Shown here: positions 327 to 7,815 of the stretch, one piece after another
Numbering within the stretch: position 1 is the first letter of the stretch
Layout of the letters: every line of letters starts with the position of its first letter
DNA from: Chthoniobacter flavus
Lineage (GTDB): Bacteria; Verrucomicrobiota; Verrucomicrobiia; Chthoniobacterales; JACTMZ01
Assembly (NCBI GenBank): GCA_945871065.1
Contig: CAMBUL010000003.1
Coordinates: 269 to 64,268, forward strand
DNA: 64,000 bases
Direction: 5' to 3'
Program-made: the position numbers and the translations under genes
Notes under the pieces: generated by a model
The model's input: the letters and a program-made list of their open reading frames with translations, nothing else
Told to the model about the DNA's origin: nothing
Database searches by the model: none

Positions 327-1469
327 TCAGGGGCGGTTGGTCAGGGTTGGCCGGAGTTGTTCGACGGGGAGGAACTCGATTTCCAGATTTTTGATGCGAC
401 GGGTGTAAGGTTTAGTGATGTTGGGGGCGATGACGAGGTTGCGGCCGTGTTGGTAGGACTCGCGGAAGTGTGCGAGGTTGTCTGCTTCGAAGGCATCGGC
501 GTTCCATTTGGTTTCGAGCGCATCGACGCGGCTGCGGGTTTGCGGGATGACGAAATCGATCTCGCGGCCGGATTCGTCGCGCCAGAAATGCAGACGTGGC
601 AGCGGGATGGAGAGCAGTGTGTCCAGCACCAGGTGCTCCCAGAGCTGTCCGCAGTCTTCGGGGCGCAAGCGGTCCCAGCCGCGGGCGTGGCAAATGAAAC
701 CGGTGTCGAATCCGTAGATTTTCGGACGGGCCAGCAACTCGCGCCGGCCGCCGCCTGAGAACGGACGCAGCAGACGGACCGCGTGCGTGGCTTGCAGCAC
801 TTCGAGCCAGCTCATCACCGTGGGCCGGCTCACGCCGGCGTGTTTGGCCAGGGAGGTAATCTCGGCGAGGCCGCCGCTCTGGCGCAGGATGAGTTCGACG
901 AGCAAAAGGAAGGCATTGCGTTTTTCGACACGGAAAAGCTCCTGCACATCGCGCGCGAAGTAGGAGTCGAGCCATTCGGCGTAGAATTCCCAGTCGGGTG
1001 CGGCGGACAACAAGGCCGGGGGCAGACCGCCGTGCAGCAAGCGGACCTTGAGGTCTTGGATACCGAAGGCGGGAAGTTCTTCCACCAGCACGGGCTCGAG
1101 AACAACCGAGCGTTTGCGTCCGGTCAGGGTGTCGCGGAATTTGCGGGTCGCGGCCAGCGTGGAGGATCCGGTGGCCAGGATTTTCAATTCAGGAAAGGCA
1201 TCGGTGGCGATCTTCAGCACGCGGCTGGGGTCGGGTAATTGGTGAACCTCGTCGAGGATCACGAGGGGTTTGCTCACGGCACGGAAGAACGCTTCCGGGT
1301 CGGCGAGACGTGCGGCTTCGGCCGGCAGGTCACAGTTGAGGAATTCCGCGTCACCAAGTTCCTTGGCGAGGACGGTTTTCCCAACGCGCCGTACGCCGGC
1401 CAGCCAGACCAGAGGGACTTTGCTCCAAGCGGCCGCAAGGCGCTGTTTCCAGAGAGGACGGTCGATCAT
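327..1469 (-). CDS. AAA_14/DUF4143 ATP-binding protein with wHTH and C-terminal PD-(D/E)xK-like domain
   Basis: Walker A GVRRVGKT, Walker B VILDEVH, GSS motif, HTH-like ITSLAKHAGVSRPTVMSWL, C-terminal EIDFV...ETK. Confidence 0.85.
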   Translation of the reverse strand: MIDRPLWKQRLAAAWSKVPLVWLAGVRRVGKTVLAKELGDAEFLNCDLPAEAARLADPEAFFRAVSKPLVILDEVHQLPDPSRVLKIATDAFPELKILATGSSTLAATRKFRDTLTGRKRSVVLEPVLVEELPAFGIQDLKVRLLHGGLPPALLSAAPDWEFYAEWLDSYFARDVQELFRVEKRNAFLLLVELILRQSGGLAEITSLAKHAGVSRPTVMSWLEVLQATHAVRLLRPFSGGGRRELLARPKIYGFDTGFICHARGWDRLRPEDCGQLWEHLVLDTLLSIPLPRLHFWRDESGREIDFVIPQTRSRVDALETKWNADAFEADNLAHFRESYQHGRNLVIAPNITKPYTRRIKNLEIEFLPVEQLRPTLTNRP

Positions 1470-1660: not shown

Positions 1661-1792
1661 TTAGCAGCAGCCGGCAGCGCAGTCGCAGGGGCAGCATTGG
1701 CCGCCGCAGTCGGTGCACTTGCAGGCTTCTTTCGCCGTGACCGTGAAGGACAGGGCGAGGACCGCCAGGATTGCGAAGAGGAATTTTTTCAT
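1661..1792 (-). CDS. Secreted metallothionein-like Cys-rich peptide (43 aa)
   Basis: MKKFLFAILAVLALSFTVTA|KEACKCTDCGGQCCPCDCAAGCC: clear signal peptide, 9 Cys in 23 mature residues, GGAG RBS upstream of ATG. Confidence 0.75.
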   Translation of the reverse strand: MKKFLFAILAVLALSFTVTAKEACKCTDCGGQCCPCDCAAGCC

Positions 1793-1828
1793 TTTGATAT
1801 TCTCCGTTGAGGTTTCGTTCCAATGTTC

Positions 1829-1850
1829 CTTCCGCCAACAGGGGCGGAAG
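1829..1850 (-). promoter_or_regulatory. GC-rich stem-loop between the upstream ORF and the metallothionein-like gene
   Basis: Minus strand CTTCCGCC-CCTGTT-GGCGGAAG, 8-bp stem, no U tract. Confidence 0.55.
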
Positions 1851-1868
1851 CCGACGCTGAGTGAGCCC

Positions 1869-2174
1869 TCAGGCTCGCGGCGGGGGAACGGGCGGACGTG
1901 AGGTCCGCACGACGTAGGAGTCGTTCTCGAGCTGCGCCGCTGGTGAGCAGCAAGGCGCAAAGACAATGGCCGGGGCAACGGCGGGAAGAATGAAGATGGT
2001 GGCTCCGCTGGTCTGACAGGAAAGGGGCGGGCACGGACAAGCAGTGGCACAGCAGTCCGGGTCGGTCTCGCAGCAGACGGAGTCACAGGGTACCGGGCTG
2101 GGAGTGGTCGCCGCTGGCACCAGCGGCACAAAGGCCAAACCCAGCAACAGCAGGGATAGTGCGGCCAATCTCAC
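1869..2174 (-). CDS. CutF/CruR (DUF2946)-like exported Cys-rich protein with proline-rich C-terminus
   Basis: Signal-like MRLAALSLLLLGLAFVPLVPA, Cys cluster CDSVCC..DCCATACPC..SC, C-terminus RPPVPPPRA; start GTG 2174 or TTG 2207. Confidence 0.65.
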   Translation of the reverse strand: MRLAALSLLLLGLAFVPLVPAATTPSPVPCDSVCCETDPDCCATACPCPPLSCQTSGATIFILPAVAPAIVFAPCCSPAAQLENDSYVVRTSRPPVPPPRA

Positions 2175-2215
2175 AACTAAAAGTAACCCACTGCGGGATG
2201 GTGTCAAACGTCCCC

Positions 2216-3499: not shown

Positions 3500-3613
3500 A
3501 GGAACCCGACAGCATCAGCCACTGGGCTCCCCTGACTCAAGTCTATTTGGCGGCCGTTGAGTTCAAAGTGGGTCAAGCCGTCGGGCGGGAGATAAAGAAG
3601 AGGTGGAACGACA

Positions 3614-3693
3614 AAGGCTGAGACTTGAGTTTGAGACCTGAGTGGAGGGGGGAGGGAGAGTTTTAAGTTTTAGGTTTGTAAGTTTTAAGTGGC
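3614..3693 (+). repeat. Composite intergenic repeat family F, copy 1
   Basis: AAGGCTGAGACTTGAGTTTGAGACCTGAGTG...GGAGGGAG...TTTTAAGTGGC; related copies at 5632 and 6978. Confidence 0.7.
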
Positions 3694-3710: not shown

Positions 3711-3786
3711 GGGTGTGCGCTTGGGAAGTAACTGGGGGGATCACCCTCATTCAGGGCGCGCGGCGGGTCCGGAGGCCCCGCCCTAC
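3711..3786 (+). repeat. REP-like family E, copy 1 (TGGGAAGTAACTGGGGG box plus GTAGGGCGGGGC hairpin end)
   Basis: 17-bp box at 3722-3738 is identical to 40624-40640 (reverse); both elements end in AGGCCCCGCCCTAC. Confidence 0.75.
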
Positions 3787-3846
3787 GACAAGAGGGTGGC
3801 TATATTTGGGTTCCGGCTCTTGTCAGCTGGCGCTACAAATGCGGGG

Positions 3847-4692
3847 ATGAAGGCTCCTTTTGCTCCGAAGCTTGATGCCGCGCTTTTGATCCTGGCGCAC
3901 GGGTCGAGTGTCAATGCGACGTCGAGCCTTCCGACCCGGGAATTGACCGGGCGGTTGCGGGACTCGGGGTTGTTCGGTGAGGTGGCTTGCGGGTTTTGGA
4001 AGGAGAAGCCGGGGCTGCGGGAAGCTTTGGATCGTCTGACCAAGCCGGAAATTTTCATCGTGCCGAATTTTACGGTGGAGGGTTATTTCGTGCGCAATGT
4101 CATTCCGAAAGAACTCGGACTGACGGGTCCAGTGACCAAAAATGACAAGGGACAGGTTCTGCGGTTGTGTTTGCCAGTTGGGGGGCATCCGCGCATGACC
4201 GAAGTGTTGCTCCATCGCGCACGGGAGGTGGCGCCGGAGGTGGATTACGCGCAGGCGGCGTTACTGGTGCTGGGGCATGGCACGCCGCTCGATACGCGGA
4301 GTTCGGAAGCGGTCGAGGCGCAGGTGGAGGCCATCCGGGCGCGCGGCATTTTCGCCGAGGTGCACGGGGCGTTCATGGAAACGCCGCCGAAGATCGAGGA
4401 CTGGCGCACGATCACGCCGTGCCGGGAGGTGATTGCCGTGCCGTTTTTTATCGCGGACGGATTGCACAGCGACGAGGACATCCCGGGTTTGCTCGGCATC
4501 ACGGGCGGTGGTGATGCAGGGGAGCGGGAGCGGAAGAATCCGCATCTGCTCGACGGGCGGCGGCTTTTTTATTCGCGGGCGGTCGGCACGGATCCGGGGA
4601 TGGGGGAGGTCATCCTCGATCAGGTGCTTTCGTGGGAGCTGTGTGCCAAGGGCATTCCGCGAAACGGGGAGACAGCGGGCGCTGCAGTGTGA
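3847..4692 (+). CDS. CbiX/SirB-family sirohydrochlorin chelatase
   Basis: Two repeated domains LILAHGS...VPNF..EGYF and LVLGHGT...VPFFIADGLH; start moved to ATG 3847. Confidence 0.85.
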   Translation: MKAPFAPKLDAALLILAHGSSVNATSSLPTRELTGRLRDSGLFGEVACGFWKEKPGLREALDRLTKPEIFIVPNFTVEGYFVRNVIPKELGLTGPVTKNDKGQVLRLCLPVGGHPRMTEVLLHRAREVAPEVDYAQAALLVLGHGTPLDTRSSEAVEAQVEAIRARGIFAEVHGAFMETPPKIEDWRTITPCREVIAVPFFIADGLHSDEDIPGLLGITGGGDAGERERKNPHLLDGRRLFYSRAVGTDPGMGEVILDQVLSWELCAKGIPRNGETAGAAV

Positions 4693-5095: not shown

Positions 5096-5362
5096 ATGGA
5101 ATTCGACTGGCTCGAGGCATCATTCGACCTCAAGGCGCTGACCCCACGGGCGATCGAAGAATCGTTCGAAGATCCGTTCAGCCTGCGACTACTGCCCGAC
5201 TATGATCATGGGGAGGCGCGCTATTTCAACCTCGGACGCTCGGTCGAGGGGCGGGGAATTTTCAGCGTGTTCTGGACGGACGGCAAAACGGTGCGGGTGG
5301 TGGCGGCGCGGCCAATGACCAAGGACGAGGAAAACTTTTTCGAAAGGAAGAATGCCGAATAG
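5096..5362 (+). CDS. BrnT-family (DUF497) toxin
   Basis: MEFDW start, GEARY..LG, VRVVAARPMT. Confidence 0.8.
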   Translation: MEFDWLEASFDLKALTPRAIEESFEDPFSLRLLPDYDHGEARYFNLGRSVEGRGIFSVFWTDGKTVRVVAARPMTKDEENFFERKNAE

Positions 5363-5639
5363 CGAAGCGAACGAGTTGCGCATGGTGCGTGCGTGGTCAG
5401 AGGTGCCCGCCTTCGACGATGAGGCGGCCGAGGCGGTATTCTGGTTGCGGCACAGTCTCGACCCGAAGCTAATGAATGCGTCGATCCCGAAGAGTGACGC
5501 GCGCGAGTCGGCCACGGTGACCTTGCGGTTTGATCCGCGCATGCTGGCGCGGATCAAACGCGTGGCCCGCTCGCGGTATTTGAATTACCAGAGCATGATC
5601 AAGCAGTGGTTGGCGGAGAGGCTTGAAAAAGAAGGCTGA
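5352..5639 (+). CDS. BrnA/CopG-family antitoxin
   Basis: PAF..EA.EA.FW, VTLRFDP..L..IK..A....NYQSMIK.WL.E.L (ribbon-helix-helix); overlaps the toxin gene. Confidence 0.8.
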   Translation: MPNSEANELRMVRAWSEVPAFDDEAAEAVFWLRHSLDPKLMNASIPKSDARESATVTLRFDPRMLARIKRVARSRYLNYQSMIKQWLAERLEKEG

Positions 5640-5752
5640 AAGTTGAGTTTGAGCCGGAGTGAAACGGAGACAGGTCGCCGCGGCGACCAAACCTGAGTGA
5701 AGGGGGTGAGGGGGAGGGAGTTTTAAGTGGCGGGAGTCGCGTTGGCGGGTGT
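5632..5752 (+). repeat. Composite repeat F, copy 2, carrying a family B palindrome (5673-5688)
   Basis: AAGGCTGAAAGTTGAGTTTGAG...GGTCGCCGCGGCGACC...CCTGAGTG...GGAGGGAGTTTTAAGTGGC...CGCGTTGGCGGGTGT. Confidence 0.7.
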
Positions 5753-5869: not shown

Positions 5870-6979
5870 ATGAAAATTGGAGTCCCCCGGGAGATTAAAA
5901 AGCAGGAGCATCGGGTCGCGCTGTTGCCGGCCACGGCCTATCAGCTGAAGAAGCGCGGACACGAGGTTCTGGTCGAACGCGGGGCCGGCGCAGATTGTGG
6001 CTATCCGGATTCCGACTATGAGGCGGCCGGCGCGACGATGGTAGACGCACACCATGCGGTGTTTGCCGCGGATTTGATCGTCAAGGTGAAGGAACCGCAA
6101 CCGGACGAGATTCCGCTGCTGCGCAAAGGCCAGATTCTTTTCACCTACCTGCACCTCGCAGCGGACAAAATACTGACGGAATCGTTGATGAAAAGCGGGG
6201 TGACGGGGTTGGCTTACGAGACGATTGAGATCAATCGACGCCTGCCACTGCTCGAGCCGATGAGTGAGATTGCCGGCCGGATGTCGGTGGTGGTGGGAGC
6301 CAACTGCCTGGCCAAGCACCATGGCGGCAATGGCGTGCTGCTCGGCGGTGTGCCGGGGGTGCTGCCGGGCAAAGTGGTGGTGATCGGCGGAGGGACGTCG
6401 GGGATCAATGCGGCCCGCATGGCGCAGGGGTTGGGGGCGGATGTGACCATTCTGGAAGTCGATCTCGAGCGGATGCGTTTCCTTGATATCACGCTACACA
6501 CCGCGCATACGCTTTATTCGAATGAGGCTCATTTGCAGGAAGTGTTGCCGCAGGTGGATCTTCTGATCGGCGCGGTGCTGGTACCTGGCGCACGCGCGCC
6601 ACGGTTGATCACGCGGGAGATGTTGCGCTGCATGAAGCCGGGGAGCGTGTTTGTCGATATCGCGATCGACCAAGGCGGCTGCGCGGAGACGTCGCGTCCG
6701 ACGACGCATGAAAACCCGACCTTTGTGGAAGAGGGGGTGATCCACTATTGCGTGGCCAACATGCCCGGGGCGTATGCCCGCACGGCGACGCAGGCCTTGA
6801 CCAATGTGACGGCGCGCTACGTCGAAATGATTGCGGATCTCACGTTGGCGGGTGCGTGTGAGAAGGTGCCGGCCCTGCGGGGGGGGATCAACGTGCACGA
6901 GGGGAAGCTGATTTGTCCGATGGTGGCCGAGGCGTTTGGGATGAGTGCCGCGCCGCTGGAACTGCGCGGCGCTTACTAA
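5870..6979 (+). CDS. ald: Alanine dehydrogenase
   Basis: MKIGVPREIKKQEHRV, KVKEP, FTYLHLAA, PMSEIAGR, DIAIDQGGC.ETSRPTTH, HYCVANMPGA. Confidence 0.95.
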   Translation: MKIGVPREIKKQEHRVALLPATAYQLKKRGHEVLVERGAGADCGYPDSDYEAAGATMVDAHHAVFAADLIVKVKEPQPDEIPLLRKGQILFTYLHLAADKILTESLMKSGVTGLAYETIEINRRLPLLEPMSEIAGRMSVVVGANCLAKHHGGNGVLLGGVPGVLPGKVVVIGGGTSGINAARMAQGLGADVTILEVDLERMRFLDITLHTAHTLYSNEAHLQEVLPQVDLLIGAVLVPGARAPRLITREMLRCMKPGSVFVDIAIDQGGCAETSRPTTHENPTFVEEGVIHYCVANMPGAYARTATQALTNVTARYVEMIADLTLAGACEKVPALRGGINVHEGKLICPMVAEAFGMSAAPLELRGAY

Positions 6980-7009
6980 GGCTGAGACTTGAGTTTGAAG
7001 CCTGAGTGA
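6978..7009 (+). repeat. Composite repeat F, copy 3
   Basis: AAGGCTGAGACTTGAGTTTGAAGCCTGAGTGA, nearly identical to 3614-3644. Confidence 0.75.
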
Positions 7010-7012
7010 GGT

Positions 7013-7086
7013 GGAGCGGCGGTCTGTGACCGCCGGTGCATGGAAGACGGAACGGAAGGGTTCCGACGGTCACATACCGCCGCTAC
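7013..7086. repeat. REPIN-like inverted pair, family C
   Basis: GGAGCGGCGGTCTGTGACCGCCG (7013-7035) and reverse GTAGCGGCGGTATGTGACCGTCG (7064-7086), GTAG foot. Confidence 0.7.
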
Positions 7087-7725: not shown

Positions 7726-7739
7726 GAAGGGAGGATAGC

Positions 7740-7769
7740 AAAGCGGCGTCAAGCCGCCGCACTCCAAAA
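7740..7769. repeat. REP-like repeat family A, copy 3
   Basis: AAAGCGGCGTCAAGCCGCCGCACTCCAAAA. Confidence 0.8.
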
Positions 7770-7815
7770 TGGACCGGGAGCCGCCGCGCCATGGCCGGCG
7801 GCCTCCAACGGCCGT

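Follow-up and report, generated by a model that had tools for sequence, protein, structure and literature searches.

A conserved cassette in Verrucomicrobiota pairs a candidate CutF-like nascent-chain sensor with a small nine-cysteine peptide predicted to be exported

Anatomy and distribution of the cassette

In a stretch of 64,000 nucleotides (nt) of Chthoniobacter flavus DNA (GenBank assembly GCA_945871065.1, contig CAMBUL010000003.1, positions 269 to 64,268; hereafter the window), ~550 bp are occupied by a cassette consisting, in this order, of a sigma-70-type promoter, an open reading frame (ORF) for a Cys-rich protein, a structured 76-nt spacer, a second ORF for a Cys-rich peptide, and an intrinsic terminator (Table 1). 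The first ORF is called here the sensor, after the role that we propose for its product, and the second the peptide. All features of the cassette are located on the minus strand, those described in a first-pass annotation of the same DNA at the positions stated there. That annotation described an exported Cys-rich ORF ending in RPPVPPPRA, which is indeed present (its C-terminal end reads ...RTSRPPVPPPRA, directly followed by the TGA stop codon), as is the downstream 43-aa ORF with a signal sequence and nine Cys in its last 23 residues. The start proposed for the sensor was wrong: TTG 2207 is the first half of the conserved -35 hexamer TTGACA, and the start codon that fits all homologues is GTG 2174, giving a protein of 101 aa (112 aa in the mechanical ORF list). 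The signal peptides of both products were judged by hydropathy only, a heuristic, and are thus referred to as predicted; for the hydrophobic core of the sensor signal, the Kyte-Doolittle maximum over 15 residues is 2.57 in the window and 1.8-2.9 across the family.

The sensor of the window has no match in Pfam at E <= 1 and none in NCBIfam, and AlphaFold2 returned no confident structure for it (pLDDT 54, pTM 0.18). Nor do its relatives belong to a family of either database; for the 25 aligned members, Pfam gave no hit even at E <= 10. The lack of a confidently predicted fold would be in keeping with a transient sensor rather than with a stable domain, but proves nothing. No second copy of the cassette is found in the window, where the only other match to our covariance model is noise (12 bits).

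The pairing recurs elsewhere. Homologues of the sensor upstream of a Cys-rich peptide are found in at least 24 distinct Verrucomicrobiota loci, namely the window, three contigs of metagenome-assembled genomes (MAGs; Verrucomicrobia or Chthoniobacter), a Terrimicrobiaceae MAG, and metagenome contigs; among the matches listed, the cassette is confined to this phylum. A word-indexed search yielded 24 sensor homologues, all metagenomic and all ~102 aa long, and no more than 11 clusters at 50% identity were retrieved when 1.84 billion representative proteins were searched exhaustively with a HMMER profile. The peptide ORF is complete in 22 of the 22 loci with enough downstream DNA and has begun in the two loci located at a contig end. 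It starts 73-86 nt after the sensor stop codon in canonical members (76 nt in the window), and the terminator is conserved after the peptide gene in all loci. Searches started from either ORF recover the sensor-peptide pair, and the joint recurrence of the ORF pair, the spacer hairpin and the terminator is far more than expected by chance.

The promoter is a conserved part of the cassette as well. The arrangement TTGAC[AT]-N16/17-TAnnnT-N5-8-start codon is found in 19 loci with unrelated spacer sequences, and also in the two divergent loci L023 and L024 described below; a simple consensus scan had missed the promoter of the window because its -10 hexamer is weak. As only 5-8 nt separate the -10 hexamer from the start codon, there is no room for a Shine-Dalgarno sequence, no sign of which is found upstream of the sensor gene, and transcription should start approximately at the start codon. 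The sensor mRNA would thus be leaderless or nearly so, with a start site deduced from the conserved promoter geometry.

Table 1. Features of the cassette and of the adjacent permease gene in the window (all positions are those of the window)
Feature	Position	Strand	Remarks
CitMHS_2-family permease, 427 aa	2216-3499	-	PF16980, E = 1e-142; stop TAA 2218-2216
-35 hexamer TTGACA	2202-2207	-	cassette's own promoter; geometry conserved across loci
-10 hexamer TACTTT	2180-2185	-	16 nt after -35, 5 nt before GTG 2174
Sensor ORF, 101 aa + stop	1869-2174	-	MRLAALSLLLLGLAFVPLVPAA, TTPSPVPCDSVCCETDPDCCATACPCPPLSC, 39-aa spacer, RPPVPPPRA-stop
Predicted Sec signal peptide of sensor, 22 residues, ...VPAA	2109-2174	-	hydropathy, basic residue 2, small-x-small c-region
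Sensor Cys cluster C30..C53, CxxxCC-x5-CC-x3-CPC-x4-C	2016-2087	-	alignment columns
Sensor linker, Cys cluster to tail	1899-2015	-	proline-rich, sequence variable, length fixed
Tail RPPVPPPRA, candidate arrest sequence	1872-1898	-	followed by stop TGA 1871-1869
P1, 5' strand CGUUCC (Pro/Val/Pro codons)	1885-1890	-	predicted pairing with GGAACG 1821-1816, closing three-way junction
P2 (CCG.CGC 1883-1877 with GCG.CGG 1857-1851), enclosing P2b	1851-1883	-	predicted fold
P2b hairpin GAGCC-UGAG-GGCUC	1876-1863	-	5 bp, stop codon in loop
P3 stem-loop CUUCCGCC-CCUGUU-GGCGGAAG	1829-1850	-	8 bp
P1, 3' strand GGAACG	1816-1821	-	24-29 nt upstream of peptide AUG
Shine-Dalgarno region CGGAGA of peptide gene	1801-1806	-	8 nt before ATG 1792
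Peptide ORF, 43 aa + stop TAA 1663-1661	1661-1792	-	MKKFLFAILAVLALSFTVTAKEACKCTDCGGQCCPCDCAAGCC
Predicted signal peptide of peptide, MKKFLFAILAVLALSFTVTA	1792-1733	-	hydropathy
Predicted mature peptide, KEACKCTDCGGQCCPCDCAAGCC	1732-1664	-	23 residues, 9 Cys
Intrinsic terminator ACGCGCCCCGG-GAAA-CCGGGGCGCGT + T-run CTTTTTTT	1603-1636 (hairpin 1636-1611)	-	11-bp GC-rich

Conservation of the sensor and of the peptide

In the sensor alignment, no variation is seen at the Cys residues (CC, CC, C-P-C, C), at a few prolines, or in the tail R-x-x-R-P-P-V-P-P-P-R-A abutting the stop codon. The invariant Cys of the window protein are C34, C35, C41, C42, C46, C48 and C53; the first Cys of the CxxxC motif (C30-C34) is present in the window and in most members, and is missing in proteins P0001-P0003. 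The tail is invariant among the 24 homologues, which share 43-87% identity, and the ending (R/Q)PPVPPPRA is kept in four proteins (P0030, P0032, P0033, and P0034) at roughly 30-40% identity. In locus L022, five tail codons are synonymously changed (CCA CCT GTT CCG CCC CCT CGG GCC) and the encoded residues are the same, indicating that selection acts on the amino acids and not on the RNA alone. Locus L025 (Terrimicrobiaceae), which was reached via the peptide, carries a sensor homologue of 110 codons (2374-2706) with a signal peptide and a different Cys cluster; it ends in ...LPDVPPPRA-stop and thus keeps the core VPPPRA-stop. This homologue is absent from the public gene annotation of the MAG, and small members of the sensor family are probably under-counted in protein databases.

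The distance between the Cys cluster and the tail is fixed as well: 43-45 residues separate the second Cys of the CxC motif from the tail Arg in 29 of 29 proteins. The linker in between has one invariant residue and 5-9 prolines. We considered it as a second transmembrane segment and rejected this possibility, as it falls short of the usual hydropathy threshold in most members and contains these 5-9 prolines.

The tail directly abuts the stop codon in 22 of the 24 loci. In L023, the tail is replaced by PPVPRA-R... and the ORF (93-443) ends 25 nt before the peptide ATG; in L024, it is replaced by SPPPRP-W... and the TGA of the ORF (135-518) overlaps the peptide ATG as ATGA. Both loci retain, in addition to the promoter geometry, a P3-like hairpin (CUCCCC/GGGGAG). 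They may be natural, translationally coupled versions of the cassette, or assembly errors.

These observations can be read without any regulatory arrest, the two genes encoding a stable secreted protein pair in which a Cys-rich metallochaperone or oxidoreductase loads, folds or passes metal to the nine-Cys peptide, and in which the tail acts at the protein level, through docking or protease protection, possibly together with the CitMHS_2 permease encoded upstream. The strong conservation of the sensor Cys cluster is what such a pair would show, the two genes are always found together, and the L023 and L024 proteins extend past the tail. We nevertheless consider this explanation, the main rival of the reading favoured below, unlikely, because a linker of 43-45 residues with almost no sequence conservation is the signature of a ruler and not of a folded domain, because AlphaFold2 finds no fold for the sensor, and because the most conserved part of the protein is the tail, with a stop codon immediately after it in all loci but two.

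For the peptide, all nine Cys and the CC-stop ending are invariant in 20 distinct sequences. Their length is 42, 43 or 44 aa, with indels of whole codons only, and their N-terminal 20 residues are variable but always of the type K/R-hydrophobic-AxA. A profile search of a protein database retrieves 31 members of the family, up to 46 aa long, and in L025 the ORF persists at about 50% identity. A GGAG/GGA-type element occupies the Shine-Dalgarno position of the peptide gene in nearly all loci. Two divergent metagenomic proteins of the family, P0062 and P0063, have only seven Cys (...CKCTDCDCKGNPCECKAG...). The peptide gene is uncalled in several loci, and it belongs to the very small ORFs that gene callers miss.

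Pairwise comparisons of peptide codons give 181 synonymous versus 489 non-synonymous differences, and the variable columns fall on codon positions 1, 2, and 3 in numbers of 18, 10, and 19, which is not a clean coding signal. As synonymous change does not dominate, the coding case rests on the integrity of the ORF, the whole-codon indels, the Shine-Dalgarno element, and the Cys pattern. The 43-codon ORF might then be thought to be untranslated, the conserved region acting as RNA alone: small ORFs are often spurious, and nucleotide conservation is high in addition to this substitution pattern. That reading is extremely improbable, since the ORF is intact in every one of the 22 loci and varies in length by whole codons, each of the nine Cys codons is retained, synonymous changes (TGC/TGT and others) being occasional, a Shine-Dalgarno element lies at the right distance, the N-terminus retains its signal-peptide character while its residues vary, and the ORF survives even in the divergent L025.

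The predicted mature peptide has 39% Cys, zero aromatic residues, and the motifs CxC, CC, and CPC; being small, Cys-rich and devoid of aromatics, it has the composition by which the metallothionein class is defined. No relatives of the peptide are found in Pfam, in NCBIfam (no metallothionein match at E <= 1) or, at a significant level, in the Protein Data Bank (PDB). A common origin of the peptide and of the sensor Cys cluster was also considered, and no evidence for it was obtained (hhalign probability of 11.6% over 8 columns).

Another role compatible with a small size, a secretion signal and a high Cys content is that of a modified or disulfide-rich secreted peptide (bacteriocin, toxin or signal) not involving metal, with the larger protein as its immunity or maturation partner. 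These traits are typical of disulfide-rich antimicrobial peptides as well, and a defensin is among the chance-level PDB profile matches (E about 1). The genes found next to the cassette are those of a CitMHS_2 permease, an AAA_14/DUF4143 ATPase, DUF3108, Mnh antiporter genes, or unrelated genes, and no radical-SAM enzyme, lanthipeptide synthetase, peptidase-ABC exporter or other maturation gene is present in the neighbourhoods seen. The peptide has an odd and invariant number of Cys (nine), its leader is of the classical hydrophobic Sec type and not that of a ribosomally synthesized and post-translationally modified peptide (RiPP), and the CC, CxC, and CPC motifs in a mature part without aromatics are metallothionein-like. 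Similarly, neither the adjacent maturase nor the non-secretory leader of SCIFF/ranthipeptide-type RiPPs is found at these loci. A bacteriocin-type product is thus very unlikely.

RNA structure of the spacer and neighbouring genes

The end of the sensor ORF and the spacer are predicted to fold into a three-way junction, on which RNAalifold (17 sequences) and the minimum-free-energy fold of the window agree. The first-pass annotation had reported a 5-bp hairpin over the sensor stop codon and an 8-bp stem-loop after it. The former (P2b) is present, but it is only one arm of the larger predicted junction, which is closed by P1 and in which P2 pairs the Pro-Pro-Arg codons of the tail with GCGUCGG. 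The latter (P3) is present and is kept by compensatory changes: four of its eight pairs are changed on both sides and 98% of cells are paired in a covariance-model alignment of 21 sequences, an alignment fitted to its model and hence biased towards that structure. In this alignment, the whole structure beats all 500 shuffles and all slid controls. The fold of the window spacer alone is modestly better than that of shuffles (z = -2.06), and no match to known RNA families is found in Rfam above noise. Stems unrelated to P3 occupy its position in L010, L012, L013, L020, L023, L024, and L025, and P2b is not retained in L012, L013, L022, and L025. In every locus, L022 and L025 included, the tail Val is encoded by GUU, which fits the GGAAC partner of P1.

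As the 5' strands of the junction are the tail codons themselves, a ribosome stalled at the tail would certainly remodel the junction. We modelled this by partition-function folding of 22 loci with an imposed ribosome footprint, either with the second Pro of PPP in the P site or with the stop codon in the A site; the footprint opens P1, P2, and P2b.

P3 precedes the Shine-Dalgarno sequence of the peptide gene by 22 nt. The first-pass annotation had suggested that its left arm could alternatively pair with the CGGAG ribosome-binding site (RBS). This suggestion did not hold: the duplex (-6 to -7.5 kcal/mol) is matched by 8-33% of composition-matched shuffles, and the pairing is gone in L004, L012, L020, L022, and L025, in which the hairpin is retained. 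More generally, folding of the 22 loci, free or footprinted, does not support shielding of the peptide Shine-Dalgarno sequence. In L025, a UUCGAG following the stop codon pairs with a CUCGAA preceding the AUG when a short context is folded, and this pairing is lost with a larger context. That RBS shielding cannot be demonstrated by folding fits the stable protein pair; the embedding of the tail codons in a conserved RNA structure, beside a covarying hairpin, speaks against it.

The stop codon of the permease gene lies 9 nt before the -35 hexamer of the cassette. The permease gene precedes the cassette in the window and in 14 of 25 locus records retrieved, corresponding to 12 of the 23 distinct loci; it is absent upstream in L002, L014, L022, and L025, and in the short upstream stretch of L021. 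It can thus be rejected as an obligate partner of the cassette, but it is a frequent neighbour and a possible partner. Its presence in 12 of the 23 loci would suit a protein pair working with a transporter, and its absence from several others would not. No relatives of the permease are found in the PDB; the wider CitMHS family includes metal-citrate carriers. A CbiX-type chelatase gene with two CbiX domains (window 3715-4692, plus strand), for which PRK02395 and sirohydrochlorin nickel/cobalt chelatases are the closest models in NCBIfam, is divergent from the permease gene. The same divergent arrangement is found in L001 and not in L004. Its location puts a metal-insertion enzyme beside the region formed by the permease and the cassette.

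On the other side, directly downstream of the cassette terminator, the window contains a gene for an AAA_14 + DUF4143 ATPase (327-1469, minus strand), as does L004. This is a common gene and is probably unrelated to the cassette. A ~45-nt repeat with the palindromic core AAAGCGGCGTCGAGCCGCCGCACTCCAAAA has intergenic copies at 271-315, 1567-1611, and 7730-7774 (plus-strand coordinates of the window) and looks like a repetitive extragenic palindromic (REP)-type element. One copy lies directly after the cassette terminator; L006 and L008, too, carry this motif after the terminator. A second repeat family (AAGGCTGAGACTTGAGTTTGAG...) is found at or just past the 3' ends of genes (3611-3655, 5629-5673, and 6975-7019). 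Finally, the window carries a type II toxin-antitoxin module, made of an overlapping pair of genes on the plus strand for a BrnT-family toxin (5096-5362, PF04365) and a CopG-type antitoxin (5352-5639, PF12441).

Comparison with known systems and proposed mechanism

To our knowledge, CutF and CruR are the only nascent exported chains studied so far that turn metal availability into ribosome stalling, and both are DUF2946 proteins of Proteobacteria. The present cassette resembles cutFOG of Rhodobacter capsulatus in that a stem-loop is located in a short intergenic region before the gene for an exported product that handles metal (putatively so in our case). The last five residues of the two upstream proteins differ only at the final one (PPPRL-stop in CutF, PPPRA-stop here). 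In CutF, the tail is P109EPEGPPPRL118, copper control is lost when PPP is changed to PAP, and the absence of EF-P has the same effect as copper (bioRxiv 10.1101/2025.02.05.636593). CutF also has a spacing of 45 residues, which has been rationalised as ~30 residues in the ribosome tunnel and ~17 across the membrane (PMC9973294). This likeness to an experimentally required tail is a further argument against the stable protein pair. In the definition of CutF-like proteins by Ozturk et al. (2023), members have <150 aa, PP among the final 15 residues, a signal peptide, and a gene downstream of them on the same strand. The sensor combines the four traits, with 101 aa, PPVPPP in its last 8 residues, a hydrophobic N-terminus, and a gene 76 nt downstream. 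The differences are no less clear. CutF has a single CxxxC motif, whereas the sensor has eight Cys (CC, CC, CPC, C) and no Pfam DUF2946 match; the target of CutF is a multicopper oxidase, whereas it is a 43-aa peptide with nine Cys here; and the CutF stem-loop covers the Shine-Dalgarno sequence, whereas the present one does not and is part of an apparently leaderless mRNA.

With CruR (Bp2923, DUF2946) of Bordetella pertussis (Roy et al. 2022), the sensor shares an export signal, a Cys motif and the ~45-residue spacing. In CruR, 45 residues separate the Cys motif from the arrest motif, a distance conserved within 1-2 residues; adding five impairs regulation, and the spacing was interpreted as coupling metal-dependent folding to arrest (PMC9426467). 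CruR carries a CXXC motif and a RAPP motif three residues before its end, whereas the tail RPPVPPPRA has RPP and PPP but no RAPP. Regulation by CruR is independent of its signal peptide and of EF-P. It involves a 162-nt intergenic region, Rho-dependent termination, and a TonB-dependent transporter as a target, whereas the present spacer is 76 nt long and highly structured. With such a spacer, immediately followed by a translated ORF, a Rho mechanism looks unlikely in our case.

Arrest peptides monitoring Sec or YidC activity offer a second comparison. SecM, VemP, MifM, ApdA/ApdP, and the RAPP-like 'RQH' family have, like the sensor, a localisation signal, a variable spacer and an Arg/Pro-rich C-terminal arrest motif, and their arrested ribosome remodels the downstream mRNA (Fujiwara et al. 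2024). These peptides are encoded upstream of secA, secDF or yidC, sense export activity and lack a Cys cluster, and the hairpins of classical secretion monitors occlude the Shine-Dalgarno sequence of the target. No secA, secDF or yidC gene lies downstream of the sensor, which is followed by the peptide gene and then by the terminator in all loci.

As regards the peptide, small copper metallothioneins and the metallothionein beta-domain have a similar size, Cys content and motifs without sequence homology, and differ in that the present peptide carries a Sec signal. In the beta-domain of mammalian metallothioneins, nine thiolates form an M3S9 or Cu6S9 cluster. The characterised bacterial metallothioneins known to us (SmtA/BmtA and MymT) are cytoplasmic. 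Csp1, a Tat-exported Cu(I) storage protein of methanotrophs, and CopG, with its periplasmic CxCC copper cluster, hold Cu-thiolate clusters outside the cytoplasm, but they are folded proteins of ~100 residues or more, unrelated in sequence to the peptide, and we know of no case in which either is controlled by an arrest-type upstream ORF. No case of an exported metallothionein-like peptide controlled in this way was found in our literature searches. Verrucomicrobiota are not mentioned among the phyla in the accessible text of the 2023 CutF survey, and the name Verrucomicrobia does not appear in the accessible supplements of the two key papers. Compared with CutF and CruR, the cassette is new in its sequence family, phylum, Cys chemistry, apparently leaderless mRNA, and type of target.

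It is from a conserved anatomy with fixed spacing, peptide-level selection on the tail, a covarying hairpin, and an obligate ORF pair that we infer metal sensing, stalling and metal buffering by the cassette. The reading that we favour, with a probability of roughly 0.55, is that of a CutF-like nascent-chain sensor of thiophilic metal controlling a secreted metallothionein-like peptide. Transcription would begin at, or within a few bases of, the sensor start codon, as suggested by the promoter geometry, and yield a leaderless mRNA. The growing chain would be brought to the Sec translocon by the signal peptide of the sensor. The ~44 residues between the CPC motif and the tail would, by analogy with CutF and CruR, correspond to the ribosome tunnel plus the membrane, the Cys cluster having just reached the periplasmic side by the time the ribosome is at the tail. 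RPPVPPPRA would slow or arrest the ribosome at the Pro codons or at termination, and a thiophilic metal bound to the cluster, or the redox state of the latter, would alter the pulling or folding force on the chain and thereby the duration of the arrest. By analogy, Cu(I) would be the most likely ligand, and Zn, Cd, Hg, and As(III) are also compatible with the vicinal CC pairs.

An arrested ribosome would cover the 5' strands of P1, P2, and P2b, so that the junction would be held open and P3 would stay folded. Opening of the junction would then change the translation or the stability of the peptide cistron, possibly through a longer single-stranded standby region, through mRNA stability, or through something else. 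The sequences of L023 and L024 point to translational coupling as a possible variant of this output. The resulting peptide, of 23 residues and nine Cys and exported via Sec, would most simply act as a metal-thiolate buffer in the periplasm or outside the cell.

Of the first-pass interpretation as an upstream ORF of the CutF/CruR type, the export signal, the Cys motif, the 43-45-residue spacer, the invariant tail and the constant pairing with the peptide ORF thus stand, while DUF2946 membership and the pairing of the RBS are not supported. Several observations weigh against a switch of this kind. The profile search for DUF2946 (PF11162) was negative, with a match in none of the 25 aligned members even at E <= 10. 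As L023 and L024 read past a degenerate tail, a stop codon directly after the tail is not universal. As many loci are closely related, there are fewer independent observations than the locus counts suggest. P1, P2, and P2b do not vary within the core group, making covariation uninformative for all three, and P1 is absent in L025. Finally, the consensus fold leaves the Shine-Dalgarno sequence of the peptide gene open, at 10 nt past the junction, and imposing the ribosome footprint does not consistently shift the accessibility of the initiation region across the 22 loci.

An open Shine-Dalgarno sequence fits constitutive rather than switched initiation, and the stall could then serve delivery: the paused sensor would tether the bicistronic mRNA at the translocon, and the nine-Cys peptide would be made beside the export site, local synthesis sparing the cytoplasm from metal scavenging. 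A peptide of 43 aa is finished before its signal peptide exits the ribosome and cannot be targeted co-translationally, and the ORF is never longer than the 42-46 aa of the family. The export signals predicted on both products, as well as the tail and the spacing, would suit a chain pausing while it spans the translocon. We regard this explanation as distinctly unlikely, as it is pure inference with no precedent found in the literature consulted, and as it explains neither the conserved eight-Cys cluster of the sensor nor the covarying hairpin.

Within the favoured reading of a metal-sensing nascent chain, a more specific proposal can be put forward only tentatively: a family unrelated to DUF2946 may have independently reached the same ruler-and-brake design, and may use it to meter a Sec-exported nine-Cys peptide from a leaderless mRNA. 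If so, the peptide would be the first natively secreted metallothionein-like peptide, or the first ribosomal unmodified metallophore peptide, in bacteria. It might work with the adjacent CitMHS_2 permease, and sensor and effector would share their ligand chemistry. If the two genes instead encode a stable protein pair or a bacteriocin, the cassette would be a modest lineage-specific one.

The finding of the same spacing and of a near-identical tail in another phylum, outside Pfam DUF2946, suggests that the ~45-residue distance and the PPPRx-stop tail are physical requirements of the mechanism and not inherited accidents. With its apparently leaderless sensor, its hairpin and a 43-codon target of reporter size, the cassette is a compact natural test case. 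Through an exported peptide of 23 residues and nine Cys, buffering of the metallothionein type would reach the periplasm or the medium.

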